Shown here: piece after piece, positions 33,677 through 48,242 of the stretch
Layout: the number at the start of each line of letters is the position of its first letter
Position numbering within the stretch: the stretch's first letter is position 1
From: Candidatus Doudnabacteria bacterium
GTDB lineage: Bacteria > Patescibacteriota > Doudnabacteria > UBA920
Assembly (NCBI GenBank): GCA_963768175.1
Contig: CAVYGQ010000002.1
Span: forward strand, 80,284-144,283
Direction of reading: 5' to 3'
Length of the DNA: 64,000 nt
Program-made: the position numbers and the translations under genes
The notes under the pieces: generated by a model
What the model was told of the DNA's origin: nothing
Seen by the model: the letters and a program-made list of their open reading frames with translations, nothing else
The model's database searches: none

Positions 33677-33696
33677 ATTTTTATCAACCCTCGGCT
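33677..33696. repeat. right copy of the 20-bp inverted repeat
   Basis: ATTTTTATCAACCCTCGGCT. Confidence 0.9.
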
Positions 33697-33975
33697 GGGT
33701 TAGCAACAAAGATGGTCATTGTGCTGCATAATATTTAAAGGCCATTTTTGTGAAGTGATTATTTCCGGGAAAAGTGCTAAAATTAAGACAGTTTTATCCT
33801 TTAAGAGTCCTATGACGATAACAGAATTAAAAACGAAGTGGCAAAAAGAAAAAGCCTCTTATACCAAACAAGAGGTTGGCTCTGGCGTTCAAAAATTTGT
33901 TAAGGATATGACAGGTACCCCAAATTCTAGACACTTAGTCTGAGGTATAATAAGGCTAGAAAGGAATCTAACTTT

Positions 33976-35074: not shown

Positions 35075-35124
35075 CCTTAAAAAACCGCAGAGAAGGTGCC
35101 TAAAGAAATGGGTACCTTACAAAC

Positions 35125-35334
35125 TTGCATATTAAGGGTGCATCTGCCCAAAATGTGGACGAGGATTTTAATCAAGCCGCAAAATTTTTAATGATGGCTA
35201 TTGATATGTTCAGAAATGAAAAAAGTCACACCTCAGATGCTAAAATAGATGACCCTATTCGTGCTTATCAATATTTAACCATAAGCAGTCTTGCGCTTTC
35301 TTTACTTGAAAATTCAGAGATTAACTCTAAATAG
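35125..35334 (+). CDS. hypothetical protein
   Basis: 69-aa ORF between the IS3 element and the first array repeat. Confidence 0.3.
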   Translation: MHIKGASAQNVDEDFNQAAKFLMMAIDMFRNEKSHTSDAKIDDPIRAYQYLTISSLALSLLENSEINSK

Positions 35335-35354
35335 TAATTGTAAAAAATAAACAA

Positions 35355-35518
35355 ACTAAATCCGCCCCTGTGTAAGGTCAGGAATGTAAATATACCCTTT
35401 ATTTTCCATAATCCTGATTTTGACTTGATAAACTAGGGTGAGCCAACAAAAATCACTCTTAAGTAAGGGTGATTTTTTGTAGGGAGCGTGGACGGTTAGA
35501 ACTGAAATGGTGTATAAT
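35355..35518 (+). repeat. array repeat R1
   Basis: CTAAATCCGCCCCTGTGTAAGGTCAGGAAT ... GAGCCAACAAAA, hairpin ATCACTCTT/AAGGGTGAT with a T run, then GTAGGGAGCGTGGACGGTTAGAAC ... GGTGTATAAT. Confidence 0.85.
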
Positions 35519-35571
35519 GCATATATAATCCTTGAAAAGTCACTACACTTAGTCAACCCAATTATAAAAAT

Positions 35572-35727
35572 ATGGTAAAAGGAAATTTTATTGGTGCGGC
35601 GATTGTTGCAATAATCTACACGGTCTATATTGCATGGCATCCCCTTCCATCCCGCTTACAAACAGCTTTAGTATTAGTGGTTCTCAATGCGTTAACCATT
35701 GTGTTGTTGTCTTTCGCATTCAAATAG
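35572..35727 (+). CDS. small membrane protein (51 aa), copy 1
   Basis: MVKGNFIGAAIVAIIYTVYIAWHPLPSRLQTALVLVVLNALTIVLLSFAFK; about 94% nt identity to 41476-41634. Confidence 0.45.
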   Translation: MVKGNFIGAAIVAIIYTVYIAWHPLPSRLQTALVLVVLNALTIVLLSFAFK

Positions 35728-35730
35728 GAT

Positions 35731-36173
35731 ATGAAAAAAATTCATCTAAAAGCTACCTGGATTATCAAAGCCCCTCGTGAAAAAATTTTTAGGATAATGA
35801 GTGATTTTGAAAATTTTCCCAGTTATTTTCCTGCCGTGGCTCAATCATTGCGCGTTATCAAAAGAAACGGCAATAATCTTACAATAGAAGCTAAAGTAAA
35901 AACATTTGGCCGTACTTTTCCAGTAAATATGGAAACCCAACTTCGTCCGCCGTTTGGGTATGTTTCAAACAATATAAGCGGTATTGGCTCTCGGGCCACG
36001 AAGAATTTTTAATGGAAGAAGTTCCGGAAGGTACAAGAATTAACTATGTTTATGAGGTTGATTTTAAAAATCCATTCCTCCGCGTTTTTGGCAAAATTTT
36101 AATAGGCTGGTATGCGATGCGTTTTTGGGAACATGCAGTTATAGATAAACTGAAAGAAATGTTAGAAAAATAA
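35731..36173 (+). pseudogene. frameshifted SRPBCC (polyketide cyclase/START-like) protein
   Basis: The N-terminal 93 aa (KAPREKIFRIMSDFENFPSYFP) stop at 36012; the C-terminal part (HEEFLMEEVPEGTRINYVYEV...) continues in another frame; total span is not a multiple of 3. Confidence 0.5.
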
Positions 36174-36184
36174 ATCCGTTTTTG

Positions 36185-36316
36185 TGAGGTTGGGTATGTT
36201 GATGTAGCCAGTCTGAGCCATAATTACAGTTCTAACATTGTTCACAGTGCCGAGCCAACAAAAAAACATCAGTATTTACTGGTGTTTTTTGTTACAGGAA
36301 GTGGGACGGTCGAACC
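36185..36316 (+). repeat. array repeat R2
   Basis: GTTCTAACATTGTTCACAGTGCCGAGCCAACAAAA, hairpin, GTTACAGGAAGTGGGACGGTCGAACC (degenerate box). Confidence 0.8.
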
Positions 36317-36378
36317 TAAATATTGGAATTACAGACTTACTTTGACAACTACGTTCTTTTAAGATAATATATGAATAT

Positions 36379-36702
36379 ATGTTCATATATCAACGTTGTG
36401 ATTGCAAAGAATGCAAAATAACCAAAGATTTCCCTGACAGCCGAGTAGAACCGGTAGCGGGCTTATTAAAGTTGGTTTCTGTGCCATCCCGGCTTAATAT
36501 TTTGTTGCTTTTAAAACAGTCGCCCCATTGCGTCTGCGATATTATGACCCATACTAGATTGTCCCAGACGCTTATTTCCCATCATTTATCGGATCTTATG
36601 AAGGCTGGCCTGATAGACAGTAAAAAAGACGGTAAGTTCATTGAATATAACTTAACCGCAAAAGGCAGAAAGGTTGTTGCTAATTTAGTTAAACTATTTT
36701 AA
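36379..36702 (+). CDS. ArsR/SmtB family metalloregulator
   Basis: LNILLLLKQSPHCVCDIMTHTRLSQTLISHHLSDLMKAGLI HTH with a CVCD metal site; Cys-rich N-terminal extension. Confidence 0.8.
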   Translation: MFIYQRCDCKECKITKDFPDSRVEPVAGLLKLVSVPSRLNILLLLKQSPHCVCDIMTHTRLSQTLISHHLSDLMKAGLIDSKKDGKFIEYNLTAKGRKVVANLVKLF

Positions 36703-36725
36703 GCAATTAGTTTGTTTAAAAATAT

Positions 36726-36971
36726 ATGAAAATTCAAGTTTTGGGTTCGGGCTGCCCGACCTGCAAAAAACTTTTTGAAATAACCAAAACTGCCGTAAAA
36801 GACATAGGTATAACCGACGAGGTGGAATACGTTACCGATATACAACAGATTTTAAATATGGGGCTAATGTCCAGCCCAGTTTTGGCAATTAACGGCAAAC
36901 CAGCACTGGTCGGCTTTGTGCCTGACGTAGAAGAAATCAAAAAGGCCATCCTAAAGACGGCTTTAAAATAA
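36726..36971 (+). CDS. thioredoxin-fold protein with a CPTC redox motif
   Basis: 81 aa; MKIQVLGSGCPTCKKLFE. Confidence 0.7.
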   Translation: MKIQVLGSGCPTCKKLFEITKTAVKDIGITDEVEYVTDIQQILNMGLMSSPVLAINGKPALVGFVPDVEEIKKAILKTALK

Positions 36972-36975
36972 CAAT

Positions 36976-37944
36976 ATGAACATTTTTGCACCTGTCCAGT
37001 GGCTGGCTGATTGGCTGACCTATTCAATGTTTAAACTTTTGCCTGACAGTATGGCTGGCAAGGCGATAGATTTTTTTATTTTTGACACGGCCAAGATATT
37101 TATCCTGCTGGCCGTTATTGTATTTGCGGTATCGGTAATCCGATCTTTCCTGCCACCTGAAAAAATAAGAACGATTTTATCCCATAAAAATAAATACGCA
37201 GGAAATGTTATCGCTTCCGTGCTGGGCATTATTACGCCTTTTTGTTCCTGTTCAGCCATTCCTTTATTTTTGGGTTTTGTGCAGGCAGGCGTGCCGTTGG
37301 GGACGACTTTTTCGTTTTTGGTGGCTTCCCCGATGATAAATGAGGTGGCTTTGGTGTTGCTGTTCGGGTTGTTTGGCTGGAGAATTGCCTTGATTTACAT
37401 TTTTAGCGGCCTTGTTATTGCCATCCTTTCGGGTATTGTTATCGGTAGCTTAAAATCTGAAAGTTTAGTTGAACCGTTCGTATTCCAAAATGCCATAAAC
37501 TCTAATGTTGTCCTGCCTGAAATGTCTTGGCGACAGCGGGTGGCTTACGCCAAAGACTACACGCTGGATATTTTGAAAAGGGTTTGGCCTTACATTATTA
37601 TCGGCATTGGCGTTGGAGCTGCAATACACGGCTATGTTCCCACGGACTTTTTAGTAAAATACGCTGGCGGCAACAAATGGTATGGCGTGCCTTTAGCGGT
37701 TTTAATTGGCATACCCCTTTACTCTAATGCCGCAGGAATAATTCTGCTGGTTAGCGTTCTAACTGAAAAAGGCGTCAGTATGGGAACGACTCTGGCGTTT
37801 ATGATGTCTGTAACAGCCCTGTCTTTGCCGGAGTTTATGATTTTGAAAAAAGTAATGAAGTTAAGGCTGATACTAATTTTTGCTGGCGTTGTCGGTTTAG
37901 GGATTATAATTACAGGTTATTTATTCAATATTTTGTTATCTTAA
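36976..37944 (+). CDS. ArsP-like permease (COG0701 family)
   Basis: TPFCSCS motif characteristic of organoarsenical permeases; 8-10 TM segments; co-directional with the ArsR and CPTC-protein genes. Confidence 0.65.
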   Translation: MNIFAPVQWLADWLTYSMFKLLPDSMAGKAIDFFIFDTAKIFILLAVIVFAVSVIRSFLPPEKIRTILSHKNKYAGNVIASVLGIITPFCSCSAIPLFLGFVQAGVPLGTTFSFLVASPMINEVALVLLFGLFGWRIALIYIFSGLVIAILSGIVIGSLKSESLVEPFVFQNAINSNVVLPEMSWRQRVAYAKDYTLDILKRVWPYIIIGIGVGAAIHGYVPTDFLVKYAGGNKWYGVPLAVLIGIPLYSNAAGIILLVSVLTEKGVSMGTTLAFMMSVTALSLPEFMILKKVMKLRLILIFAGVVGLGIIITGYLFNILLS

Positions 37945-38124
37945 GCTGGCTTCGGATGCGCAATAAATATCCAGCCATTCTCAACAAACCACGTTCTAAC
38001 CTCGACGCACAGGTCGGGGCAGGCAGCACCGCGGTGTTGAGCTAACAAAAATTACCCTTATTTAAGGGTAATTTTTGTATACCTATTTTGAAGAATATTT
38101 CCAAAGTTTAAAAAGGTGTATAAT
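37945..38124 (+). repeat. array repeat R3
   Basis: TTATGCGCAATAAATATCCAGCC ... GTTCTAACC ... GAGCTAACAAAA, hairpin TTACCCTTA/TAAGGGTAA, ... GGTGTATAAT. Confidence 0.8.
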
Positions 38125-38171
38125 TAAGGCGAATAAAGTGGACGATCGGAAATAAACATAAAACTAAATAT

Positions 38172-39803
38172 ATGAAATGCGCAAAGTGTAACCGCAGGCT
38201 TGGTATAGGGGCTGAATTTTGCACCAACTGCGGCACGGCAGTCCCGCCGGCTCCCGCGGGGCAAAAGAAAAAAAGTTGGATTAATTTTTTTATTTGGCTG
38301 GGGATGATTGTTTTGCTGACGCCAACCTTATATTATTTCGCTACCCATGGCTCAAATGCGACACGCTACACCGCTCAAGAAAATTTATGGGGTTCGTTGG
38401 CAGTCGCCTTCCTTGCCGCCAGCTTACTTTATTTGATTTATCGCCTAATCTATCACCTGGTTAAATTCACCATCCGCCGGCCGGTGTGGGGCTCAATTCT
38501 TATTGTGATGTTTGTAGTGTGGCCGGCTGTGGGTGGTTTTTTCTATTTGCAAGGCGGTTATCTAAAAACTCAGTTTCAAACAGCGGTAGCCGGTATTCAG
38601 CAGCAATTAGACCAGACGGCAGATGCCAAACTGGCTGGGGATTTATTGGCGGCCAAAAAGCCGGTAGCAGGAATGACAATCGATAATGTTCAAAATCAGG
38701 CAGCACAAGCAGCCAAAAATCTGGCAGCGTTAAAAGTGCCGGATTCGCTGAAAAACTACCAGGCTGTGGCCATCATCTGGTCTTTGCAAGTTGCCAGTAC
38801 TCAGACTGCCGATTGGAAGGGTTTAACGAATCAACCTGCTGATTTTCCATTGGCACTAAACCAGGCCGATGCCAGCAGTACTTTTGCCGCCAGCTTGCAA
38901 ATTATTGATAATCTCAAAAAAGACGGGGCTGATGCCATTAGTAAAAAAGACCGTGTTGCCATGCGGACCGTGGCAGCCAAACTATTGATCCAAGAGCACT
39001 GGCTGAATGCTGTCCTGCATTCAAACACCAACAGCACCGCGCTTAACTTTGCCCTTCCGGCTTTTGCCGATACAGGCTTACAGCCGGTGCCGGACGTGAA
39101 AGGTGTAAATGTAACCTGCTCGGTCTGCGATTATCCGGATGCTTACAAAGTTCACTGGACGGATAGCTTAAGAAAGCTGTACGGCTGCGATACGGCGTGC
39201 CATCCTAAAATTAGAGTCTTACAGACAGGAGGAGGCGGGCAGCAGCAAGTGCAAACTCAGAATCAATCTCAAGCCAGCCAACCAACTGCAAACAATCCTG
39301 CTACTGACAATGAGCTACAATATGCGACTGCTTTAACATCGTATACCTACGCCAATGTGCCTACATATACGATATGCATGGGCTATAACGGCACCGCAAC
39401 CCGGACCAGCGGCACCAACGGCTACTGTTTGCAGGACGCTGTGCAATCCACCAATGAAATTGCCGCTTCGGCCATCGGCTTTTCGGAAAGCACGAAATCT
39501 TTGACAGTCAATCAATGGGATAACGAATATCAACAAATCGATTTAGCCCTGCAGCCGCCGGCCAACGAAACTGGCGCCGCGCCCAGCAAGCCCGCCATCA
39601 CGAACGGGCACACAGAAGGCGGCATGGGCACGGTTTCTAATGGATCCAAAGATAGACCGATACTAAATCCTAATTGCAATCCTTTTGAAGAAGATTGCGA
39701 TCCTTACAGTGCACCAATCAATAACACCCCTTCACCGGGTATAGATTGTGGCGATAACGCACCTCCCTCTGATATTCCTTGCAACCTTCGGCATCTTCCG
39801 TAG
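38172..39803 (+). CDS. membrane protein with an N-terminal zinc ribbon and a large extracytoplasmic domain
   Basis: CAKCNRRLGIGAEFCTNCG, then TM segments, then a roughly 400-aa Gln/Ala/Thr-rich domain. Confidence 0.4.
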   Translation: MKCAKCNRRLGIGAEFCTNCGTAVPPAPAGQKKKSWINFFIWLGMIVLLTPTLYYFATHGSNATRYTAQENLWGSLAVAFLAASLLYLIYRLIYHLVKFTIRRPVWGSILIVMFVVWPAVGGFFYLQGGYLKTQFQTAVAGIQQQLDQTADAKLAGDLLAAKKPVAGMTIDNVQNQAAQAAKNLAALKVPDSLKNYQAVAIIWSLQVASTQTADWKGLTNQPADFPLALNQADASSTFAASLQIIDNLKKDGADAISKKDRVAMRTVAAKLLIQEHWLNAVLHSNTNSTALNFALPAFADTGLQPVPDVKGVNVTCSVCDYPDAYKVHWTDSLRKLYGCDTACHPKIRVLQTGGGGQQQVQTQNQSQASQPTANNPATDNELQYATALTSYTYANVPTYTICMGYNGTATRTSGTNGYCLQDAVQSTNEIAASAIGFSESTKSLTVNQWDNEYQQIDLALQPPANETGAAPSKPAITNGHTEGGMGTVSNGSKDRPILNPNCNPFEEDCDPYSAPINNTPSPGIDCGDNAPPSDIPCNLRHLP

Positions 39804-39954
39804 AAAAATAGCCAAATAAATTTTCAAGATGTTTTTTAGCAATTGAAATCCGGAAAACCATCGGTTCCAGATTTTTGCTTACCCGCGTGGAATTTAAATC
39901 AAAATCAAATATAAAAATCGTCGGCGGCTGAGCAGTTCAGCCGCCGTCTGGGCA

Positions 39955-40290
39955 CTACGCATGGTTATTCCAGTCACTGGAGTCGTAACTTGGTGATCGC
40001 CCGCTTGAAGTACCTCCTATCGCCACGCCTTTGTGATATGTTGTCCCGCCTCCGCTGGAACCACCAGTACTCTTTTTGTCCTCTTTGCCACAAAAAGGCA
40101 GGAAAAGGAGTGCAAATGGCAGCGCGAGGATTCGGCTGACAAGCGGAGTGATGGCGAAAAGCCCGGCTATTACCAAGTACCCCAGGAAGGTGTACTTGCC
40201 AGTGATCGCCAGCACCAAAATGCTCAGTAGGTACAGCCAGTGCGAGAAACATTGGGCTTTCCGATAAACTTTGCGTAACCTTTGGTTCAT
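39955..40290 (-). CDS. hypothetical membrane protein (the only minus-strand gene in the array)
   Basis: 111 aa, two TM segments, Gly/Ser-rich tail. Confidence 0.4.
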   Translation of the reverse strand: MNQRLRKVYRKAQCFSHWLYLLSILVLAITGKYTFLGYLVIAGLFAITPLVSRILALPFALLFLPFCGKEDKKSTGGSSGGGTTYHKGVAIGGTSSGRSPSYDSSDWNNHA

Positions 40291-40469
40291 AAATCCCTCC
40301 TCTTTGGGATTGTAATATTATACTCCTTTGCTCTTACCTGTAAAGAAGGAAATATAAGCAAGCCCTTATTTATATGTTTAAAAAATCGTTCAAAATTCCC
40401 ATGACCCAAGTGTCTAGCGCAAGGCTCCAAAAAACCCCGGGGATTTGTCCAAAGGGGCGACCGCAATCC

Positions 40470-40592
40470 AGCCGCTGAGCCAACAAAAATCACTCTTGAG
40501 TAAGGGTGGTTTTTTGTAGGGAACGTAGATGGTTAGAACTTTAAAATATTGCCAGACACTTGACAGACATATCTTATATGATATACTATAAT
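40470..40592 (+). repeat. array repeat R4 carrying the toxin-gene promoter
   Basis: GAGCCAACAAAAATCACTCTTGAGTAAGGGTGGTTTTTTGTAGGGAACGTAGATGGTTAGAAC, then TTGACA-16-TATACT. Confidence 0.8.
40559..40592 (+). promoter_or_regulatory. sigma-70-like promoter for the toxin-antitoxin operon
   Basis: TTGACA (40559-40564), 16-nt spacer, TATACT/TATAAT. Confidence 0.5.
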
Positions 40593-40601
40593 AAAAGCCT
40601 T

Positions 40602-40967
40602 ATGGACGAGTATAAAGTTAAATTTTTTTCCGACCCTGTAACCGGCAAAATTCCCGTCCGTCAATATTTAGATAATCTATCGGACAAGGAACGGGCGAAG
40701 GTTTTAAAGTATATTGAATTTTTGAGGCAGTACAAAGGCGTGTTGGATGAGCCATATACCAAGCATATTCGCGACAAGATTAGGGAATTACGCATAGATT
40801 TCAGTACTAATAGGCACCGTATTTTCTTTTTTACTTTTGTCGGGAAAAACATTATCCTGCTTCATGCTTTTCTTAAGAAGACCTCTAAAACTCCAGGGTC
40901 AGAAATCAGCAAAGCCCTAAGCAATTATCATAAAGTTATCAATAACCCAAAAACCTATGAAAACTAG
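40602..40967 (+). CDS. RelE/ParE-superfamily toxin (HigB / phage Gp49-like)
   Basis: About 121 aa from the Met at 40602; RIFFFTFVGKNIILLHAFLKKTSKTP core; toxin upstream of an HTH antitoxin as in HigBA. Confidence 0.6.
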   Translation: MDEYKVKFFSDPVTGKIPVRQYLDNLSDKERAKVLKYIEFLRQYKGVLDEPYTKHIRDKIRELRIDFSTNRHRIFFFTFVGKNIILLHAFLKKTSKTPGSEISKALSNYHKVINNPKTYEN

Positions 40968-41256
40968 CAAAAACCTTAAAAACAATATTAGTTTCCAGTC
41001 TTACCTAAACAACCAGCTCAAAAATCCGCAGATAAAGAAACGTTATGACCAAGTTGGTAAGCAGCTAGAAGTGGCCTATCAAATTGTCCAATTGCGGAAG
41101 ATGCGCGGCATATCCCAATTGGAGCTGGCAAAAAGACTGGGTACAACTCAAAGCAACATTGCTCGGATTGAAGCCGGACAACAAAATTTTACCACTTTAA
41201 CCTTGCAAAAAATCGCAAAAATATTCAAGCGCGATTTGAACATTGAGTTTGTTTAG
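40957..41256 (+). CDS. XRE-family HTH antitoxin (HigA-like)
   Basis: LRKMRGISQLELAKRLGTTQSNIARIEAG; overlaps the toxin gene by 11 nt. Confidence 0.7.
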   Translation: MKTSKNLKNNISFQSYLNNQLKNPQIKKRYDQVGKQLEVAYQIVQLRKMRGISQLELAKRLGTTQSNIARIEAGQQNFTTLTLQKIAKIFKRDLNIEFV

Positions 41257-41261
41257 AAAAT

Positions 41262-41430
41262 AACCAACCTAAATCCGTCCCTGTGTGAGGTCAGGAATAT
41301 AGATATTCCCTTGAAATTCAACTATCTTGGTTCTAACGTTCTTCACAGTGCCGAGCCAACTAAAATCCCCCAAATCCTTGGGGGGTTTTAGTATACGAAC
41401 TAGACGCTCGGAACCGAAAGGGCGTATAAT
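41262..41430 (+). repeat. array repeat R5
   Basis: CTAAATCCGTCCCTGTGTGAGGTCAGGAAT ... GGTTCTAACGTTCTTCACAGTGCCGAGCCAAC, hairpin CCCCCAA/TTGGGGGG, ... GGCGTATAAT. Confidence 0.85.
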
Positions 41431-41475
41431 AAAAATACGCAAAGGTCGTTAACAAAAATCTAATTGAAATAAAAT

Positions 41476-41634
41476 ATGGTAAAAGGAAATTTTATTGGTG
41501 CGGCGATTGTCGCAATAATCTACACGGTCTATATTGCATGGAAGCCTCTTCCAACGCGCTTACAAACAGCTTTAGTATTAGTGGTTCTCAATGCGTTAAC
41601 CATTGTGTTGTTGTCTTTCGCATTCAAAAGATAA
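41476..41634 (+). CDS. small membrane protein (52 aa), copy 2
   Basis: MVKGNFIGAAIVAIIYTVYIAWKPLPTRLQTALVLVVLNALTIVLLSFAFKR. Confidence 0.45.
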   Translation: MVKGNFIGAAIVAIIYTVYIAWKPLPTRLQTALVLVVLNALTIVLLSFAFKR

Positions 41635-41647
41635 AAAAATCTTCAAT

Positions 41648-41944
41648 ATGTGGCAATTATATACATTTAGCTTTTTAGCAGGTCTGTTTGCGGCAAACGG
41701 AACCCCGCATTTTATTAAGGGTGTCATGGGACAAAAGCATCAAACCCCATTCGGCAAGCCTTCGTCGGCCGTAGTTAATGTCTGCTGGGGTTGGATTAAC
41801 TTTGTTGTAGCCGTTATTTTTTTTCACTTCGGCCATGTGCACACTCATGAGAATAGAGCATTTGCGATGTTGGCCGTAGGAGCACTACTGATGAGCTTGC
41901 TTTTGGCTACGGTCTGGTCAAAGCATCCAGAATATAATAAGTGA
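41648..41944 (+). CDS. hypothetical membrane protein
   Basis: 98 aa from the Met at 41648; three TM segments. Confidence 0.4.
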   Translation: MWQLYTFSFLAGLFAANGTPHFIKGVMGQKHQTPFGKPSSAVVNVCWGWINFVVAVIFFHFGHVHTHENRAFAMLAVGALLMSLLLATVWSKHPEYNK

Positions 41945-41969
41945 CTTTGTCTCTTAACCATAGACGGTT

Positions 41970-42548
41970 TTGTATAATGATCCCATGTACGACTACGGCT
42001 ATGTCATCATCGCAAGTTGGTTGGTCCTTATGGCGGTGTGGGTGCTAGGCGCCTTTACCGCCAAACGCGACGTTTCAAGCAGCAGAAGCTCTGTTCTTTG
42101 GCTCTGGCGGCTCCTTTTGTTGGGGCTCTTGATTTTTGCTCTGCGAAATCCGTATGACGATGCGTCCGTCCTAAAGCGAGCATTCTTTAATTTTGGCCCC
42201 GCACTCAACTGGGTTGGCGCATTTTTAACCGTTATCGGAATCACGTTTGCGATCTGGGCGCGGTACCGCTTGGGACGCAACTGGGGCTCACGTCAGAAAG
42301 AAGATCCCGTGTTGGTGACCAGCGGCCCCTACGCATATGTCCGCCATCCGATTTATACCGGCGCTACTTTCGCGCTTTTCGGCAGTGCATTGACCGGAAG
42401 CATTGTGGCCGTTGTGCTGTTTATTATAAGCATTATCTTTTGTCTGCGCCGCATCGACAAAGAAGAGCGCGTGATGCTCAGCCTTTTCCCCGGGCAATAT
42501 CCGGCCTATCAAGCGCGTACCAAGCGGCTCATACCGCTCGTGTGGTAA
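41970..42548 (+). CDS. isoprenylcysteine carboxyl methyltransferase (ICMT) family membrane methyltransferase
   Basis: YAYVRHPIYTGATFALFG (RHPxY..G) and C-terminal EERVMLSLFPGQYPAY motifs. Confidence 0.75.
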   Translation: MYNDPMYDYGYVIIASWLVLMAVWVLGAFTAKRDVSSSRSSVLWLWRLLLLGLLIFALRNPYDDASVLKRAFFNFGPALNWVGAFLTVIGITFAIWARYRLGRNWGSRQKEDPVLVTSGPYAYVRHPIYTGATFALFGSALTGSIVAVVLFIISIIFCLRRIDKEERVMLSLFPGQYPAYQARTKRLIPLVW

Positions 42549-42569
42549 TCATACCGGACGGAGCGCTTC

Positions 42570-42826
42570 TTCTTTATGCGCAATAAATATCCAGCCGTTC
42601 TCCACAAACCATGTTCTAACCCCGACGCAAGGTCGGGGCAAGCAGCGTCCGCAGCATTGAGCCATTCGACCCATTCGGCTTTCGCTCAGGGTCGCCCCGA
42701 GGGAACTCGAGGGGCGACAAGCTCATGGCCTGCGGCCAACAAAAGTCGCCCATATTTGTGGGCGATTTTTGTATAGGGAAGTGGGACGATTAGAACTGAA
42801 AAGGTATTTTTGAGTGTGATATAATT
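42570..42826 (+). repeat. array repeat R6 (extended)
   Basis: TTATGCGCAATAAATATCCAGCC ... GTTCTAACCCCGACG ... 59-bp block GAGCCATTCG...GAGGGGCGA ... GGCCAACAAAA, hairpin GTCGCCCA/TGGGCGAT, GTATAGGGAAGTGGGACGATTAGAAC ... TATAAT. Confidence 0.85.
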
Positions 42827-42836
42827 AAGTTACCTT

Positions 42837-43718
42837 ATGAAAATAAAAGGAATCGAAAAATTCAGAGAAAAAGTTCCAATGCTACGAGGCAAGAAGTTAT
42901 TTTTGTTGCCTTTGTACGCATTTTCTGTCTTGTCTCTTAGCCTTTTGGTGCTGATAGGATTTGATTCACTACCGGGTATGGCTAAGCTAAACGGCATCAA
43001 TTCTATTTTATTTTCCCTGTTTCCTCTCATTGGAGAAGTAATTATCTGTACTGTTGGACTCATTCTGGTTTACCAGATGTGGTTTCGGAAAAATCGGCTA
43101 AAAGCCAAATATGGTCCGCTCTCTTATCAACATATCTTCCTTGTGGGCTTTGCCGGTGTTTCTTGCTTGCTCTCTTTATCAATTAATCTGTTTGTTCATT
43201 ATTGGTCGTTCTCGTCATTATTTTGGATAAATTCACCGCTTAAATTTCTCACAATTCCGCTAGAAGAATATTTTTACACTTTAGGAGTAATGATATTTTG
43301 GGTAAAAATAGCTCTTTCAGTTTTTTTCTCGATTTTGGGGATTGCGATGATGCTTCGGGCTCTACAAACATTCGGATTTGATTATATGACAGTGCTTTAT
43401 CTTTATTTTCCCGAAGAAAGCAAAATACAGAATCACAAAATTTATTCTACTCTTAGGCACCCTACGTACGCAGGGGCTCTGCTAATAGGTTTAGGCGGGA
43501 TGTTCTCCACGCTTACCTTATATTCGGTCATCTTTTTTGTTGTTTACCTATTAGCTTTTTATATTCACATACATTTCGTAGAAGAGAAAGAACTTATTGT
43601 GCGGTTCGGGCCATCGTATCAAGAATACATGAATAAAGTACCAGCCTTTTTTGTCAATCTCAATAAACTGGGAGTTCTTTTGGGTTTCCTGCTAGGAAGG
43701 TCTGATAACAATTTTTAA
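42837..43718 (+). CDS. polytopic membrane protein with a C-terminal ICMT-like (RHPxY) domain
   Basis: YSTLRHPTYAGALLIGLGG and EEKELIVRFGPSYQEYMNKVPAF. Confidence 0.55.
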   Translation: MKIKGIEKFREKVPMLRGKKLFLLPLYAFSVLSLSLLVLIGFDSLPGMAKLNGINSILFSLFPLIGEVIICTVGLILVYQMWFRKNRLKAKYGPLSYQHIFLVGFAGVSCLLSLSINLFVHYWSFSSLFWINSPLKFLTIPLEEYFYTLGVMIFWVKIALSVFFSILGIAMMLRALQTFGFDYMTVLYLYFPEESKIQNHKIYSTLRHPTYAGALLIGLGGMFSTLTLYSVIFFVVYLLAFYIHIHFVEEKELIVRFGPSYQEYMNKVPAFFVNLNKLGVLLGFLLGRSDNNF

Positions 43719-43724
43719 CATCGT

Positions 43725-43905
43725 TCCGTAGGATTTATATCGGGGATATAAATCTCTCCGGTTTCCGTAATTTTGGTTCTAACGTTATCTACGATGCCGA
43801 GCCATTCGACCCATTCGGCTTTCGCTCAGGGTCGCCCCGAGGGAACTCGAGGGGCGATTTTTATATAGGGAGGTGTAAAGGTTAGAACTGAAAATGGTGT
43901 ATAAT
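43725..43905 (+). repeat. array repeat R7
   Basis: GGTTCTAACGTTATCTACGATGCCGAGCCATTCG ... identical 59-bp block ... ATATAGGGAGGTGTAAAGGTTAGAACTGAAAATGGTGTATAAT. Confidence 0.85.
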
Positions 43906-43949
43906 GATTAAAAGGTCGGCTTTGTTTAATTACTATTTAATATAAACAA

Positions 43950-44330
43950 ATGAACGCCTCAATTACTATTGTTCAGTTTTTAGGAATTCTTTTCGCCGGT
44001 ATAGGTATATCAGTTGTTATTGACAAAAAGAACATATCTGCCGCCATTAGAGAGATAACTAAAAATCAAGGTACGTTATGGATGTGGGGTTTTCTTACCT
44101 TAACCATTGGCGCTGTCTTTCTTGTGCTGAATCACACTTGGACACCCCGTTTACCATTAGTCGTGACCATCGTTGGCTGGCTAACTTTGATAAAGGGGCT
44201 TTATATTCTCATCTTCCCAAACTCCGCCGTTTCAATGTACGAAAAGTGCAATAAAGACAGCATATTTATTCCTTGCGGAATCATTGCTTTCATTTTAGGC
44301 TTAGTTTTGCTTTACCTGGGATTTATGTAA
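43950..44330 (+). CDS. membrane protein (126 aa), paralog A
   Basis: Four TM segments; same length and topology as 47661-48041. Confidence 0.45.
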   Translation: MNASITIVQFLGILFAGIGISVVIDKKNISAAIREITKNQGTLWMWGFLTLTIGAVFLVLNHTWTPRLPLVVTIVGWLTLIKGLYILIFPNSAVSMYEKCNKDSIFIPCGIIAFILGLVLLYLGFM

Positions 44331-44339
44331 TACTGCGCG

Positions 44340-44423
44340 GCGGTCGTTGTCAATGATGGTGAGCCAACAAAATCCTCAATGTTTATTGAGGATTTTTGTA
44401 TAGGGAGGTGGGATGGTAGAACC
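44340..44423 (+). repeat. array repeat R8
   Basis: GAGCCAACAAAATCCTCAATGTTTATTGAGGATTTTTGTATAGGGAGGTGGGATGGTAGAACC. Confidence 0.85.
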
Positions 44424-44538
44424 TAAAACGATGGCAAGTGGCGGGTTGGTATAAAAATTGCTATTATAGAAACGAGGGATTAATCAAAATAAACGCGCAA
44501 CTCTTAAAGGTACGAGGATGAACCACTAAAATTATATT

Positions 44539-44928
44539 ATGGCGTATCAGAATAAAAAAATCCTGGTGGTGGAAGACGATGATTTGCTCAGAAGAATCAT
44601 CACCAATCAGTTATCCGCAAACTATACAATTATATCCGCCGCTGATGGCGAGGAAGCCCTGCAACAGACAGAAAGCCAAAGGCCGGACATTATAGTCTTG
44701 GATTTGCTGTTGCCTAAGTTGGATGGCTTTGGTTTTTTGGAGAAATTGCGGAATTCTCCCGACCCAGTATTAGCAAAAACAGTGGTCTTGGTGGTCAGCA
44801 ATTTATCAGATCCCAAAAATATAGAGAGGGCAAGCCAATACAAGGTGTTAGAGTATTATATTAAATCAGATCTTCAACTTGGCATTTTACTAAATAGGGT
44901 TAACCGATATTTTGCCCAAGGCACATAA
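44539..44928 (+). CDS. stand-alone response-regulator receiver (CheY-like) domain protein
   Basis: KILVVEDDDLLRR ... DIIVLDLLLPKLDG ... VVLVVSNLSD. Confidence 0.85.
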   Translation: MAYQNKKILVVEDDDLLRRIITNQLSANYTIISAADGEEALQQTESQRPDIIVLDLLLPKLDGFGFLEKLRNSPDPVLAKTVVLVVSNLSDPKNIERASQYKVLEYYIKSDLQLGILLNRVNRYFAQGT

Positions 44929-45125
44929 ATAGCCAAAAGCGCTTCTTCTTTTTTATGCGCAATAAATATCCGGCCATTCTTCATAAGCTACATTTAAATA
45001 GCGTCCGCAGCGTTGAGCTAAAAACCCCATTGAAAGATAGTGTTTTTTGTTATCATATAAATAAAAAAATTTGATTGATTTTTTGACGCATTATTAAATA
45101 TGTATTAAAATTATATTGCAATAAT

Positions 45126-46091
45126 ATGTTGCGAGACCCGGTAAAAAAAGCCGGTTTTAGCTATCCACTGCCAGTCAGCGTCGGTTTAGCGCTGCTGTTT
45201 TTATTTGTAATCTTAATCCCCAAATCTTTTGCTGGCATTAGCGATTGCTCGGCCGGCTACGAATTCCAGCGGATGAGCGGGGTAGGTTGCGTACAAAAAA
45301 ATTGCGCTTTGGTTCCCAATGCCCATTATAGTTACGAAGGGTATTGCATTTGCGGCTCGGCAGGCAGTATTAATGAAAATCCAAACGACCCAAATAAAAG
45401 ATGCACCTTACCTCACGATAATGCGGCTTGTCCCGATTGCGTTTATGCTTGTGTCCACAATAATGAAGACTGCCCAAGCCAAAAGCCTGCCGGGCAACAG
45501 TCAACAACCCAACCGTCGGCTCAGGAACAGGAAAGGATAATAAACGCGCTTAGCCAGTCTCCGTTCGGCAGCCCGAATAAAACCAAAGTAGTGACAGCCG
45601 GCATCAGTTGGGAAGCAATAACAAGCATTGTTAAAAGGGGGTTTGGGGCAATTATGGCCGGAACGGGATGGGTGCTGGACAAAACTACCGGCTACCAAAT
45701 TATACAAGATAAGGGGAATACGGATTCCGGTTGGGCGGGAATGGTGGTTGCTCCCAATGGAGATTATGTGAATGTCAAGATATTTGAAGGCAGGCTGGAA
45801 TTAAGCTGGGAAAAAGGCGTAGCCGCCGAATTTAATCTTATTTCCGTAAAAGGCCGGCCAGGCAGCCATAGTTTTATTGACGGATTTTCCATCGGTATTG
45901 GGCCGGGGGCGGTGAATAAAGACGAAGGCGATCATGAAATTCCGGGCACTCCTATTTCGCCCAATATTAATTTTGGGAATATCAGAGATTATTTCGGTGA
46001 AAAATGGGACAGCGTAAAAAATTGGTGGCACGAAAATGCCCCCTGGCCTCTGGGCGGGGTTAATACACCTAACATTGGCGGTGGGCAATAA
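45126..46091 (+). CDS. secreted Cys-rich protein, function unknown
   Basis: N-terminal signal/TM segment; about 14 Cys within the first 110 residues. Confidence 0.4.
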   Translation: MLRDPVKKAGFSYPLPVSVGLALLFLFVILIPKSFAGISDCSAGYEFQRMSGVGCVQKNCALVPNAHYSYEGYCICGSAGSINENPNDPNKRCTLPHDNAACPDCVYACVHNNEDCPSQKPAGQQSTTQPSAQEQERIINALSQSPFGSPNKTKVVTAGISWEAITSIVKRGFGAIMAGTGWVLDKTTGYQIIQDKGNTDSGWAGMVVAPNGDYVNVKIFEGRLELSWEKGVAAEFNLISVKGRPGSHSFIDGFSIGIGPGAVNKDEGDHEIPGTPISPNINFGNIRDYFGEKWDSVKNWWHENAPWPLGGVNTPNIGGGQ

Positions 46092-46097
46092 AAAATT

Positions 46098-46517
46098 ATG
46101 CCTTATATTATTTTCTTGCTAATTTATTTACTGGCAGCCTATCTAGTTTTTCTTATTGCTAAAAAACTAAACGACAAATTAGCCGTCTTTGCCTGGTTCC
46201 CGTTTCTAAGCGACTACTTAATTACCCGTTTGGCGCGCAAACCAGCTTATTGGTGGATTTTAATGTACATCCCGATACTGAATATTTATTATGACTATGT
46301 TCTTTGGCGGGAAATTTTTAAAAGATTTAATCGTAATTCTTTATATGCGGTTTTAATGTTGATACCAGTAATTAATTGGGTAGGCTTATTGCTGCTTGCC
46401 TGTGTTTTTAAGAATACAGAAGTTAAGGCAGTACCAATAGAAGAAAAGAAAGGGGAAGAGAAAAAAGCAGAGGAAAAAAAAGATGAAAAAATGGAGATGC
46501 CAGAGGGAAAAAATTGA
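46098..46517 (+). CDS. membrane protein with a Lys/Glu-rich C-terminus
   Basis: 139 aa, three TM segments, EEKKGEEKKAEEKKDEK tail. Confidence 0.4.
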   Translation: MPYIIFLLIYLLAAYLVFLIAKKLNDKLAVFAWFPFLSDYLITRLARKPAYWWILMYIPILNIYYDYVLWREIFKRFNRNSLYAVLMLIPVINWVGLLLLACVFKNTEVKAVPIEEKKGEEKKAEEKKDEKMEMPEGKN

Positions 46518-46619
46518 AATGAAGCAGCAAATTTCCTAGAACTCTCGGTAAATAACCACAGATTTTTTTATCCATGTTAAAAAGGGGCAAGCGTCAACCT
46601 TGGCTTTGCCTTGGACAAA

Positions 46620-46714
46620 ACGGGTCGTTCAGCAGCCATAGCCAACAAAAGTCGCCCATATTTGTGGGCGATTTTTGTATCTTACTATGCGGTTTTGAGC
46701 TTGTTTGATATAAT
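46620..46714 (+). repeat. array repeat R9
   Basis: AGCCAACAAAAGTCGCCCATATTTGTGGGCGATTTTTGTAT (hairpin identical to R6) ... GATATAAT. Confidence 0.75.
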
Positions 46715-46755
46715 TATAGTGCTATAAAATAATAAGTTTTTAAGGAAACAAAAAT

Positions 46756-46971
46756 ATGAAATCGATAAAAGGATTGGAAAAGCATCGCTGGTTTATTTGG
46801 ACCATAGTTGGCATAATGGTAATTTTAGGCGGTTTAACCATTTATGTTTACTATGTCGTGCAAACGAATGACTGGGGGACTTCGGGAACTATGATCCGTC
46901 AAGGGCTGAAAACACAAAAACTTCAGCGCATGCTAAAAAATTCTCAAACTTCCCATTTGAAACAATACTGA
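46756..46971 (+). CDS. small membrane protein
   Basis: 71 aa, one TM segment. Confidence 0.3.
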   Translation: MKSIKGLEKHRWFIWTIVGIMVILGGLTIYVYYVVQTNDWGTSGTMIRQGLKTQKLQRMLKNSQTSHLKQY

Positions 46972-47111
46972 AGCCGGGGATCGAAGTTGATTTTAAGGTC
47001 AATGTGCGGGCGGGAATAAAAATTAAAACTATTTTATTTCATTTATTTGCAGTTCAATTACTTATAGTTTGCGGCTGAGTTTTTGTTTTAATTTAATTAT
47101 TTTTTAATGAA

Positions 47112-47615
47112 ATGAGGAAGCAAAACCACAAAGGTTTTACCTTAATTGAGTTGTTAGTAGTAATTGCCATTATCGGTCTTTTGGCGTCGGTAGTTCTGTT
47201 GGCGTTAAATGGCGCGCGGGCCAAAGCCAGGGACGCAAAAAGAGTCGCGGATATGAACCAGCTGCTTAAAGCTTTTGAATTATATTATAATGATTATAAC
47301 AGCTATCCCACCACCACACCATCGGGCAGTTTAAGCAGCAGCAGCATTCCTTCCTTAATGGTGCCAAATTATATGAGCACCATGCCCAAGACGGTAAACC
47401 CTGCCGACGGCAATTGTAGCAGTACGGCAAACGTTAACGGGTCCAACGATTATTATATGTACGCCAACAGCAATGGTACGGCACAGCAGGCCGTAACCAG
47501 CACCTACATAATAACTTTTTGTTTGGGCAGTCAGGTTGGAGCCTGGGGCCGGGTTCCCATACACTTACATCAGGCGGATTTCAGTAAATGGGCAATCGGA
47601 CCTGAAAGCGTATAA
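47112..47615 (+). CDS. type IV pilin / pseudopilin (prepilin-type N-terminal cleavage/methylation domain)
   Basis: KGFTLIELLVVIAIIGLLASVVL class III signal peptide. Confidence 0.8.
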   Translation: MRKQNHKGFTLIELLVVIAIIGLLASVVLLALNGARAKARDAKRVADMNQLLKAFELYYNDYNSYPTTTPSGSLSSSSIPSLMVPNYMSTMPKTVNPADGNCSSTANVNGSNDYYMYANSNGTAQQAVTSTYIITFCLGSQVGAWGRVPIHLHQADFSKWAIGPESV

Positions 47616-47660
47616 TTTTATTGATAAAAAAGGTCGAGGAAACAAAAGGACACAATTTTT

Positions 47661-48041
47661 ATGGACGCTTCAATTGTTTTGGCAAAAATTAGCGGCATAA
47701 TGTGCCTGCTAGTCGGCTTGACGGCGCTTAACAAAAAATACATCGCCGCGATAATCGATGAGCTGGAAAGCAGCAAGGCGCTATTTTGGTTTATCGGCTT
47801 TGTCGCGGCTTTAATCGGCGCCGTAATCCTGGCGCTTTACAGCGCATGGGGTTTTAACTGGCGGGTCTTGATAACTATCCTTGGATGGCTGTCTCTGCTC
47901 AAAGGGATAGCGATCACGCTTTTTCCGGATTCCCTGATGTCTTTTTATAAAAAGTTTAAAGCCAGCGGCATTATATTATTTAGCGGCGTTATTGCCATCA
48001 TCTTCGGCGTTATTTTGCTCTATAAGGCTTTTATTGCATAG
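47661..48041 (+). CDS. membrane protein (126 aa), paralog B
   Basis: Same architecture as 43950-44330 (LTLIKGLYILIFPNS vs LSLLKGIAITLFPDS). Confidence 0.45.
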   Translation: MDASIVLAKISGIMCLLVGLTALNKKYIAAIIDELESSKALFWFIGFVAALIGAVILALYSAWGFNWRVLITILGWLSLLKGIAITLFPDSLMSFYKKFKASGIILFSGVIAIIFGVILLYKAFIA

Positions 48042-48049
48042 CCACAGAG

Positions 48050-48159
48050 GCACGAACGTTGTTTAGTTGTTAAAAGCCCGAGCCTGCAAAATCCCCGATA
48101 GTTCGAGGGATTTTATTGTATAGAAACTTGATGACTTCGAAACTTGAAAGGTGTATAAT
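48050..48159 (+). repeat. array repeat R10 (last, degenerate)
   Basis: GAACGTTG ... GCCCGAGCCTGCAAAATCCCCGATAGTTCGAGGGATTTT ... GACTTCGAAACTTGAAAGGTGTATAAT. Confidence 0.7.
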
Positions 48160-48242
48160 AAATATACCTAAATAGGGCTTATATTAATAATGGTAAAAAT
48201 TTCAAGCTGACGGTTTTTAAGCCTTAAAAAAAGTTAACGCGT

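Follow-up and report, generated by a model that had tools for sequence, protein, structure and literature searches.

What joins the small genes that lie between an IS3 element and the GH130 genes of this Doudnabacteria contig? In the window, the whole 64-kb stretch of DNA analysed, these 13 kb look like a series of small gene cassettes, each self-contained, with a conserved module at every joint; the whole resembles a gene-swapping platform of an undescribed, integron-like type. The repeat array described in a sequence-only reading was recovered by three routes: a repeat scan, motif searches and a covariance model built on the unit core. The model found 10 full-length copies in the window, all on the plus strand and spanning 35433-48151 (matches at 35433, 36245, 38032, 40470, 41346, 42726, 43792, 44354, 46632 and 48073). 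Every match lies in an intergenic gap of 35335-48242, and the other ~51 kb of the window had no full-length match. The combined left/hairpin/right pattern had 4 matches in the window versus 0.00 expected from shuffles. Each junction in the array carries one unit, the sole terminator there. The composition of the array is that of the flanks.

The cargo had been annotated correctly, including the duplicated small genes. The gene read as frameshifted is intact in a near-identical Logan contig, a 1-nt indel apart. The cargo and the neighbouring insertion sequence are:

35572-48041, plus strand: cargo, ~11 cassettes of 1-3 genes each (Pfam, gene calls), including a 51-aa protein with SRPBCC; ArsR, Thioredoxin_3 and ArsP; a 543-aa zinc-ribbon membrane protein with the one minus-strand gene of the array (39955-40290); a Gp49/HTH toxin-antitoxin pair; a 52-aa protein, a DUF7144-like protein and PEMT/ICMT; a second PEMT/ICMT; a 126-aa protein; REC; a 321-aa protein with DUF5684; and a 71-aa protein, a pilin and a 126-aa paralogue.
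33909-35117, plus strand: IS3-family insertion sequence, ends approximate (rve, rve_3 and HTH_21 domains), with ORFs at 33976-34242 and 34235-35074.

The IS3 element apparently sits inside the first gene of the array. The ORF at 35125-35334 matches the Hypoth_Ymh C-terminus with 23.8 bits, slightly under the Pfam cut-off of 25. The same IS is found at different positions in the relatives L015 and L025.

A unit has up to four parts: a left arm, a central hairpin, a right arm and, in many units, an extended -10 box. Scores in bits are from the covariance model.

35355-35518, plus strand: unit 1, 78.0 bits; type-A left arm without the 8-mer, GAGCCA at 35440, terminator 35446-35481, right arm 35479-35502 (GTAGGGAGCGTGGACGGTTAGAAC), TGTATAAT ending at 35518.
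36174-36317, plus strand: unit 2, 71.1 bits; the left arm is of type A and has GTTCTAAC at 36229 and GCCGAGCCA at 36249-36257; the terminator occupies 36258-36291 and the right arm, with the end GGTCGAAC, 36291-36315.
37956-38124, plus strand: unit 3, 48.7 bits and repeat scan; type-B left arm (ATGCGCAATAAATATCC...GTTCTAAC at 37993) with a hairpin insert of 24 nt; GAGCTA lies at 38039, the terminator spans 38045-38078, the right arm is absent and TGTATAAT ends at 38124.
40430-40592, plus strand: unit 4, 76.2 bits and promoter scan; short left arm and GAGCCA at 40477; the terminator occupies 40483-40518, and TTGACA-N16-TATACT follows the right arm (40516-40539).
41272-41430, plus strand: unit 5, 72.4 bits; type-A left arm with GTTCTAAC at 41330 and GCCGAGCCA at 41350-41358, terminator 41359-41392, variant right arm with the end CTCGGAACC, CGTATAAT ending at 41430.
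42576-42825, plus strand: unit 6, composite, 79.4 bits and repeat scan; the left arm is of type B, with GTTCTAAC at 42613; next come a 59-bp block at 42659-42717 that recurs in unit 7 and a second core, whose terminator occupies 42739-42772 and whose right arm spans 42771-42796; TATAAT lies at 42820.
43730-43905, plus strand: unit 7, 28 bits; type-A left arm with GGTTCTAAC at 43775 and GCCGAGCCA at 43796-43804, the terminator lies within the 59-bp block, the right arm GGGAGGTGTAAAGGTTAGAAC spans 43868-43888 and TGTATAAT ends at 43905.
44354-44430, plus strand: unit 8, 75.5 bits and repeat scan; the left arm is minimal (GAGCCA at 44361); the terminator spans 44367-44399, the right arm 44398-44422.
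44955-45050, plus strand: partial eleventh unit, from the repeat scan, with only a hairpin-level covariance match; the left arm is of type B and lacks the 8-mer, GAGCTA lies at 45015, the hairpin is weak and the right arm absent.
46585-46714, plus strand: unit 9, 38.9 bits and repeat scan; type-C left arm, TAGCCA at 46639, right arm absent, GATATAAT ending at 46714.
48060-48159, plus strand: unit 10, 52.8 bits and repeat scan; the left arm is degenerate (CCCGAGCCT), the terminator spans 48088-48114 and the right arm is a variant with the end CTTCGAAAC; TGTATAAT ends at 48159.

On the right, the array ends with unit 10, and from ~48175 the conserved region upstream of GH130 follows. The repeat scan reproduced the exact 59-bp duplicate in units 6 and 7 (42659-42717 = 43799-43857) and the identical hairpin of units 6 and 9 (42735-42774 = 46641-46680). 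The 8-mers GTTCTAAC and GTTAGAAC are reverse complements, as had been claimed, and both are near-canonical in just two to three units (IG7, IG6 with ATTAGAAC and IG2 with GGTCGAAC). Right arms are frequently degenerate or absent.

The origin of the arms leads to the nearby tRNA gene:

33342-33628, minus strand: tRNA-Asn (GTT) with encoded CCA; ARAGORN calls the spliced sequence tRNA-Asn.
33275-33696, no strand: 422-bp segment around tRNA-Asn with a perfect 20-nt inverted repeat at its borders (33275-33294 / 33677-33696).

The claimed gene is real, as indicated by ARAGORN and an intron-less orthologue in the relative L014. Its anticodon loop holds a 212-nt group I intron (Rfam RF00028, E 7.9e-9; its 45 bits fall short of the gathering score, 50), because of which ARAGORN missed the unspliced gene. 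Homology to L014 stops at the outer edge of the right inverted-repeat copy, where the array side starts. Left arms resemble the tRNA-Asn 3' end in sense (shuffle p 0.004-0.02). Right arms resemble it in antisense; their reverse complements gave shuffle p 0.0005-0.005 against the tRNA 3' half, and the right arm of unit 8 is identical in 12/12 positions (GGGAGGTGGGAT, p 0.0005). The similarity of tRNA-Ser and tRNA-Lys to the arms was not comparable in the shuffle test. The proposed similarity is specific to tRNA-Asn. The unit model also matched the tRNA 3' end plus terminator, with its left half on the minus strand (21.4 bits) and its right half on the plus strand (15 bits). This region is apparently the source of both arms. 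The left flank carries the sense copy ...GGTTC...GCCGAGCCA and the right flank the antisense copy GGGAGGTGGGA..TAGAAC, so the ancestral site resembles a tRNA-Asn 3' end made palindromic. Compared with the tRNA, the arm consensus contains a conserved insertion of 3 nt, and this insertion recurs in other genomes.

Three readings had been offered for the units. The description and the tRNA-Asn link hold; no reading fits as stated. Att scars of serial integration at the tRNA-Asn 3' end are contradicted by the location of the array on the 5' side of the tRNA, an orientation shared with L014. Direct att scars cannot explain a sense and an antisense copy in each unit. Fresh scars were rejected as well: the arms are a diverged family with its own consensus and the 3-nt insertion and would not rebuild the tRNA.

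The centre of the unit is well supported as a Rho-independent terminator of the upstream cassette. In 26 copies of the hairpin, 93.8% of cells pair, compared to 75.7% in shuffled and 51-56% in slid alignments, and 10 of 13 pairs have compensatory changes. A second pairing check used 14 hand-picked copies. G-U pairs make the plus-strand fold 3.5-6.5 kcal/mol more stable in 7/10 units; this placement on the coding strand resembles that in an RNA terminator. The fold of the tRNA-Asn gene's own terminator favours the tRNA's own strand. The TATAAT box predicted ~10 nt past the right arm is present in about four units; in others, the box is farther away or different. By its consensus match, the extended -10 at the end of many modules is a putative promoter for the next cassette.

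These functions recall the third earlier reading, a spreading terminator-promoter module, of which the terminator stands and the tRNA origin is plausible. The unit itself would be mobile, a palindromic MITE/REP/Correia-like element that arose from the tRNA-Asn 3' end and spread into the intergenic gaps of an accessory gene cluster already in place. Its arms would be the imperfect inverted repeats of ~17 nt (GTTCTAAC-GTyCyyCAC) around a 90-115-bp core with internal hairpin. Solo and partial copies, near-identical hairpin blocks in several contexts and the Correia-like supply of terminator and promoter agree with this. We consider it unlikely. Spread of the unit alone is contradicted by its restriction to arrays: copies are absent from the 51 kb of flanking chromosome and from the 10-20-kb loci of unit-free relatives. 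No target-site duplications were seen, each junction has exactly one unit, and conservation reaches ~60 nt to the left of the supposed inverted repeat. Copies from different genomes can match better than copies within one (IG5 versus L002, 94%, the identity of the unit 5 left arm to L002 1117-1197). The relatives lack the cargo genes themselves. The array restriction of the units and the lack of the flanking genes in relatives suggest that cassettes move, not merely units.

These relatives were found via the neighbouring GH130 gene (product 77-82% identical). All four contigs (L014, L015, L016 and L025) have the locus without the array. Modules occur in other Doudnabacteria MAGs and metagenome contigs (L002, L003, L005, L007, L009, L010, L012, L019 and L020), where similarity to the window is almost confined to the modules and the cargo is unrelated. 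One hairpin family combines with different left arms, and a right arm may be present or absent. From GAGCCA rightwards, the sequences of L009u1 and L010 agree completely, but their left arms differ. The right arm, promoter, 5'UTR and gene of unit 7 are conserved together in L020. GGTTCTAAC-N15-GCCGAGCCA is strongly conserved across genomes at fixed spacing; a search for RNA structure in it detected none. Tyrosine and serine recombinase genes are absent from the 64-kb window and from readable array-bearing contigs.

Such mosaics might arise without dedicated machinery. After DNA uptake, ordinary gene conversion or homologous recombination would swap the cassettes. The modules would be spacers with a conserved regulatory role (terminator plus promoter) in a hypervariable island and would act as homology handles of 80-190 bp. 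Mosaic breakpoints at the edges of conserved blocks in two different positions, the lack of a recombinase, the uniform composition and competence-type pilin genes speak for this explanation, which we judge rather doubtful. It leaves unexplained how unrelated genes first gained the same tRNA-derived arms and why the fixed-spacing motif is so conserved. Many conserved blocks are short for RecA-dependent exchange.

The remaining earlier reading was a true integron-type system, a CALIN with units as attC sites folding into single-stranded hairpins and an IntI-like integrase elsewhere. The architecture agrees: co-oriented small cassettes with one site each, variable cargo with a toxin-antitoxin pair and small unknown genes typical of integrons, site subtypes common to several genomes, AAC/GTT triplets of the outer 8-mers in attC orientation and no integrase nearby, as in CALINs (PMC4889954). 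The attC definition does not. The array has no strict RYYYAAC...GTTRRRY pair, and the 18 x 13-nt stretch from the outer 8-mers to the hairpin is non-complementary. Against a constant left 8-mer (GTTCTAAC), the right one takes several forms (GGTCGAAC, CTCGGAAC, GTCGGAAC), so the pairing is not maintained. Single-strand DNA folds gave modest z-scores of -1.1 to -3.8 (minus strand -1.1 to -3.1). Canonical attC was rejected, with uncompensated variation of the outer 8-mers, a hairpin acting as an RNA terminator and cassettes bringing their own putative promoters. Integrons are absent from very small genomes (PMC4889954). This explanation is quite improbable.

We prefer, with a probability of roughly 45%, a flexible cassette island in a Patescibacteria chromosome, with recombination sites of tRNA-Asn origin as its junction modules and a recombinase acting on them in trans. 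Each cassette, with its one to three genes, would form a transcription unit of its own. The arms would be the sites at which cassettes are inserted, exchanged and shuffled. The enzyme may be one of the site-specific recombinases that target tRNA genes; its own gene would lie elsewhere in the genome, and it would act as on integron cassettes in a CALIN. Homologous exchange between conserved modules could increase the mosaicism. In L014, a large serine recombinase and a Prim-Pol gene abut the tRNA-Asn 3' end; a tRNA-Asn-targeting recombinase thus circulates in the lineage. A copy of the L014-type serine recombinase did not turn up on a length-matched contig. Near-identical assemblies (L001, L026) showed no cassette presence/absence polymorphism. 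Junctions map to two places, after GAGCCA and after TTTTTGTA/GAAC, not to one crossover point, so gene conversion fits as well as site-specific exchange.

In weighing the preferred island, array restriction, terminator, tRNA-Asn origin, shared modules with different cargo, array-less relatives, module shuffling and the L014 enzyme were counted for it. The missing recombinase and polymorphism, the two junction places, degenerate right arms and the 5'-side location were counted against it.

Several known systems share traits with this locus. Correia/NEMIS, ERIC and REP-type elements are likewise intergenic, ~100 bp long, with inverted-repeat ends, an internal hairpin and terminator and promoter activity, but they are dispersed genome-wide beside resident genes, whereas the units here are array-confined and join accessory genes. 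The pdif (XerC/D) modules of Acinetobacter plasmids are small, integrase-less and often toxin-antitoxin pairs, bordered by short recombination sites for a recombinase in trans, and the folded attP of CTX phage consists of two inverted copies of the host target. An 11-6-11 dif-like site was not recognised in the units; GGAATGTAAAyATA resembles a XerD arm over 8-9 nt only.

Tycheposon islands of Prochlorococcus (bioRxiv 10.1101/2020.12.28.424599) and ICE/CIME accretion also place a flexible island beside a tRNA, in a streamlined genome, with partial tRNA-like repeats between cargo blocks; a recombinase-plus-primase element occupies the same tRNA in L014. Here, however, the island is on the 5' side although the repeats copy the 3' half. 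They belong to a conserved family that has diverged and carries the 3-nt insertion, they come in sense/antisense pairs and they also form arrays away from a detectable tRNA (L003, L009), and cassettes of 0.4-2 kb carry no integrase or replication genes. Compared to CALINs (Cury et al. 2016, PMC4889954), the units differ in R boxes, L boxes and whole-site hairpin, centre on an RNA terminator, have arms from a tRNA 3' end and offer every cassette a promoter-like box, in a CPR host with a ~1 Mb genome, a size class without reported integrons. Both share localised, co-oriented small cassettes, each followed by a conserved, imperfectly palindromic site, cargo mostly of unknown function, an integrase that is not nearby and site subtypes that occur in several genomes.

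Housekeeping genes flank the array region on both sides (purine synthesis, DnaG, sigma-70, BacA), and the window has a G+C content of 43%. A repeat scan and the printed intergenic sequences placed one repeat unit at almost every boundary of a gene or short operon in 35335–48242; the gaps 39804–39954 and 46972–47111 are free of units. All but one of the 22 array genes lie on the plus strand (21/22). The features discussed are the following:

4677–6239, 11166–13892 and 14594–15253: fusion of a LexA DNA-binding/S24 peptidase with an N6/N4 DNA methylase, an enzyme of MmeI-type restriction-modification, and a second gene of LexA-like type with a DUF3800 gene after it
33275–33294 and 33677–33696: perfect 20-nt inverted repeat
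33342–33628, minus strand: tRNA-Asn(GTT) gene with a 212-nt group I intron in the anticodon loop
33719–33943 and 35125–35334: Hypoth_Ymh-like gene, apparently split by the IS3 element
~33909–35117: IS3-family element
35433–48151, plus strand: ten full-length repeat units
35567–35724 and 41471–41628: duplicated 158-bp segment
35731–36173: SRPBCC (Polyketide_cyc) gene
44955–45050: eleventh, partial repeat unit
48243–52016: tandem pair of GH130 genes

Each unit consists of a left arm, an A run, a hairpin, a T run, a right arm and often TGAAAnGG-TGTATAAT. The left arm ends in GGTTCTAAC-N15-GCCGAGCCA(AC) and the right arm is GTA(TA)GGGAGGTGGGACGGTTAGAAC. A covariance model built from 14 unit cores found the ten full-length copies; outside 35433–48151, it gave only generic hairpin-level matches in the window. 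The combined left/hairpin/right pattern had four matches, against 0.00 in shuffles. The array-restricted family of junction modules is real. The exact duplications described in the sequence-only reading (a 59-bp block in its units R6 and R7, a hairpin block in R6 and R9) were recovered by the repeat scan, and its cargo annotation was upheld by Pfam and gene calls. The SRPBCC gene, which it had called frameshifted, is so in the window and intact in L001 (103–480), a Logan contig 99.98% identical to the window. The two differ by a single 1-nt indel, which stems from misassembly or else from variation in the population. L001 also breaks at both copies of the 158-bp segment. These copies carry a 51/52-aa membrane-protein ORF, share 96% identity and have edges tight around the ORF; their 5'UTRs are unrelated.

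The central hairpin is the intrinsic terminator of the upstream cargo gene. In an alignment of 26 units from nine sources, which was fitted to the covariance model, 93.8% of the stem cells were paired, compared with 75.7% in column shuffles and 51–56% with the partners slid. Compensatory change was present in 10 of the 13 stem pairs, and the observed pairing values were reached by none of 500 shuffles. When 14 units were aligned independently with MAFFT, 90.1% of the cells were paired and 8/13 pairs had compensatory change. Because about 9% of the stem cells are G-U pairs, the RNA fold of the plus strand is 3.5–6.5 kcal/mol more stable than that of the minus strand in seven of the ten window units. 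The terminator of the tRNA-Asn gene is also more stable on the strand of the tRNA. A run of 4–7 T lies directly 3' of the hairpin, and together with the G-U strand asymmetry forms the terminator signature. The units thereby combine the features of a Rho-independent terminator: a G+C-containing stem-loop, a U run and covariation on the transcribed strand. By consensus match, a promoter-like sequence (TGTATAAT or TTGACA-N16-18-TAnnnT) is located 5' of most cassettes.

The modules recur with different cargo in other Doudnabacteria. A genome scan with the unit pattern matched two Candidatus Doudnabacteria MAGs, a metagenome scan yielded five further contigs with units, and close homologues of one cassette gene led to two more. 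The pattern was not found in viral contigs, and the units had no family match in Rfam at gathering and E-value thresholds. Contig L003 has at least six units among eight co-oriented small genes, including RibD_C, ArsR with AHSA1 and a CxxCxxCC protein; contig L002 has four units among ArsR, DUF6496, OmdA and others. In BLAST comparisons of array-bearing loci with the window, similarity was almost confined to the units. L002 and the window share one left arm at 94% identity, next to unrelated genes. The array is accessory: none is present 5' of GH130 in four relatives linked by this gene (L014, L015, L016 and L025; product 77–82% identical). Homologues of a 126-aa cassette gene on the long contigs L017, L018, L021, L022 and L024 are located outside arrays, with no units around them. 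L018 encodes a tyrosine recombinase, also with no units around it. Between near-identical assemblies no polymorphism of cassette order was found; the order is identical in L001 and L026.

Other mobile or variable features were seen in the relatives. The cargo of ArsR with AHSA1/SRPBCC and RibD_C occurs in two settings, with junction units in L003 (622–4074) and with short unit-free spacers downstream of GH130 in L025 (5103–9266). The IS3-family element, 85–94% identical, is located at different positions in the window, L015 (3212–4130) and L025 (1–31). In L015 (9981–19492), the GH130 genes are present as inverted duplicates that are broken up around pieces of DDE_3/HTH transposase.

The units are shuffled in a modular way. 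Four kinds of left arm accompany the hairpin ATCACTCTTrAGTAAGGGTGAT (in window units 1 and 4 and contigs L009 and L010), with the right arm present or absent, and the hairpin family GTCGCCCATATTTGTGGGCGAT is shared by units 6 and 9, L002 and L019. From GAGCCA rightwards, through hairpin, promoter and gene, L009 matches L010 exactly; their left arms differ. The window and contig L020 have kept the right arm, promoter, 5'UTR and the 126-aa gene together and differ 3' of the stop codon. These combinations place the breakpoints in clusters, directly after GAGCCA and after TTTTTGTA or GAAC. Homologous exchange between conserved spacers is a rival explanation, which we regard as unlikely.

The tRNA-Asn gene near the array escaped detection by ARAGORN and by Rfam at the gathering threshold because the group I intron (RF00028, 45 bits, E 8e-9, below gathering level) splits its anticodon loop. 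Spliced in silico, it is a normal tRNA-Asn(GTT). The gene is encoded on the minus strand and the array lies at higher coordinates, so the 5' side of the tRNA faces the array. An intron-less tRNA-Asn is located ~2 kb from GH130 in L014, in the same orientation as in the window. Homology between the window and L014 in the tRNA 5' flank ends at 33695/33696, precisely where the right copy of the 20-nt inverted repeat has its outer edge. This repeat encloses the tRNA-Asn and its terminator in a segment of 422 bp, which may be invertible or transposed. An inversion of the segment that brought the tRNA 3' end beside the array remains speculative, since L014 has the present orientation too. In L014, the tRNA is separated from an 18-nt duplicate of its 5' end by a 365-bp insert with a GIY-YIG ORF. 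On the 3' side of its tRNA-Asn, L014 carries an integrative element (885–8430) with a large serine recombinase and Prim-Pol/PriCT_1/AAA_25. The recombinase ORF (6295–8013) overlaps the 3' end of the tRNA gene, which marks tRNA-Asn as a recombinase target in this lineage.

The likeness of the arms to this tRNA, noticed in the sequence-only reading, survived alignment with shuffle statistics (p 0.0005–0.02). Reverse-complemented right arms of six units, some of them from three other contigs, matched the 28-nt 3' half of tRNA-Asn with p 0.0005–0.005, and left arms matched it via CCGAGCCA with p 0.004–0.02. The 3' halves of tRNA-Ser and tRNA-Lys resembled neither arm. On the sense strand of the tRNA, CCGAGCCA-A run-hairpin-T run aligned with the left half of the unit model (21.4 bits); on the opposite strand, hairpin-T run-GGCTC-GGGAGGTGGGA aligned with its right half (15 bits). 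These matches on two strands describe the unit as a tRNA-Asn 3' end with a palindromic terminator and a tRNA end on both sides. The alignments indicate a specific relationship of the arms to the 3' end of tRNA-Asn. The site would have arisen when the tRNA end was palindromised, possibly by inverted duplication about the hairpin. Relative to the tRNA, the right-arm consensus contains a 3-nt insertion and reads GTA(TA) where the tRNA has TGGCTC; L002, L003 and L020 share this derived form. As judged from these differences, the arms would not be fresh tRNA copies, and the derived form could not rebuild the tRNA.

For the long type-A left arm, a structured RNA was rejected. RNAalifold gave -0.95 kcal/mol and eight single folds had z values of -1.2 to +0.8; all that remains is a short pairing between invariant bases, TGGTTC/GAGCCA. 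The conservation of GGTTCTAAC-N15-GCCGAGCCA at fixed spacing is accordingly at the level of sequence, a pattern that a protein-binding site would show.

We infer, at slightly less than even odds (roughly 0.45), that the arms serve as recombination sites for a recombinase acting in trans. Tyrosine and serine recombinase domains (PF00589, PF00239) were absent from the window in a scan of ~75 ORFs, which left out just a few short ones; the one transposase or recombinase seen was the IS3 rve transposase. Pfam scans of ORFs in the readable parts of the arrays of L002, L003, L009 and L012 gave no tyrosine or serine recombinase. Among the best 120 matches of the L014 large serine recombinase, none was on a contig with the length of an array-bearing one (192667, 12724, 8083, 7125 or 5062). 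A wider proposal, put forward tentatively and with the odds well against it, is an integron analogue of Doudnabacteria (CPR) independent of IntI/attC. Its site would be the palindromised tRNA-Asn 3' end with a terminator, its enzyme a tRNA-targeting tyrosine or large serine recombinase encoded elsewhere, and its cassettes complete transcription units exchanged between episymbionts with tiny genomes.

Genomes of CPR/Patescibacteria are ~1 Mb in size, and little is understood of the ways in which these bacteria gain and reshuffle accessory genes. To our knowledge, integrons have not been described in this group. In the searchable literature, no paper linking attC sites or cassette arrays to CPR/Patescibacteria was found, and nothing comparable for CPR bacteria. 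The origin of the attC site is itself an open question. If the arms are recombination sites, they would provide a concrete, testable case of a cassette recombination site originating from a tRNA 3' end and a terminator, and would indicate a mechanism by which streamlined episymbionts gain and lose genes. In a minimal reading, the modules are compact, portable terminator-promoter insulators that mark flexible islands in Doudnabacteria MAGs.

Several known kinds of element share single traits with the units. A mobile terminator-promoter element, also considered in the sequence-only reading, would account for the terminator, the promoter-like box and the imperfect inverted repeats of 8–17 nt. MITE, REP and Correia-like elements are dispersed, whereas the units are array-restricted in the window, and inspection by eye of three units (intergenic regions IG2, IG6 and IG7) revealed no target-site duplication; such an element is unlikely. 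A dispersed MITE was rejected on these two observations and because the cargo itself is absent from relatives. Five further candidates were rejected by eye: a dif/Xer site in GGAATGTAAAyATACC (8–9 nt resemble a XerD arm, with no matching XerC arm), REP/RAYT (GTAG on the wrong side of the palindrome), a LexA (Cheo) box (GTTC-N4-GTTC is a direct, not an inverted, repeat), a DNA uptake sequence (motifs not genome-wide) and an RSS-like CACAGTG...ACAAAAA (wrong spacer).

A simple series of integration scars at this tRNA, another earlier suggestion, was not borne out. Att scars repeat, in direct orientation, the part of the tRNA gene between the crossover and the 3' end. The arms of the units are specifically similar to the tRNA-Asn 3' half, but they are diverged, by the 3-nt insertion and GTA(TA) for TGGCTC, and both orientations are present within one unit. 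A tRNA-integrated island lies on the 3' side of an intact tRNA with an integrase at its edge, whereas the array lies on the 5' side, with no integrase in the window.

The attC site is defined by inverse core sites, R'' RYYYAAC and R' GTTRRRY, 57–141 bp apart. The whole site folds into an imperfect hairpin with extrahelical bases, in which a short unpaired spacer separates L''/L' boxes from the adjacent R boxes. No strict RYYYAAC...GTTRRRY pair was present in the array on either strand. The sites observed are instead the 8-mers GTTCTAAC and GTTAGAAC, one pyrimidine or purine longer than R boxes, and both are near-canonical in only 2–3 of the 11 units. The stretches between 8-mers and hairpin, 18 nt on the left and 13 nt on the right, are not complementary, and the right 8-mer drifts without compensating change in the left one. 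DNA folds of the units had z values of -1.1 to -3.8, with the terminator as the main contributor. Rfam has no attC family and gave no match within 33000–48600. Unlike a complete integron, the array has no adjoining IntI tyrosine recombinase. Its cassettes are co-oriented, as in integrons; integron cassettes are mostly promoterless, whereas most of these have promoter-like boxes by consensus. The integron-like reading in its canonical attC form is contradicted by these differences, and a true attC/IntI system is improbable. Outside the definition of either, the system with arms as putative recombination sites functions in the manner of an integron cassette array or CALIN and is reminiscent of tycheposon-type tRNA-anchored islands.
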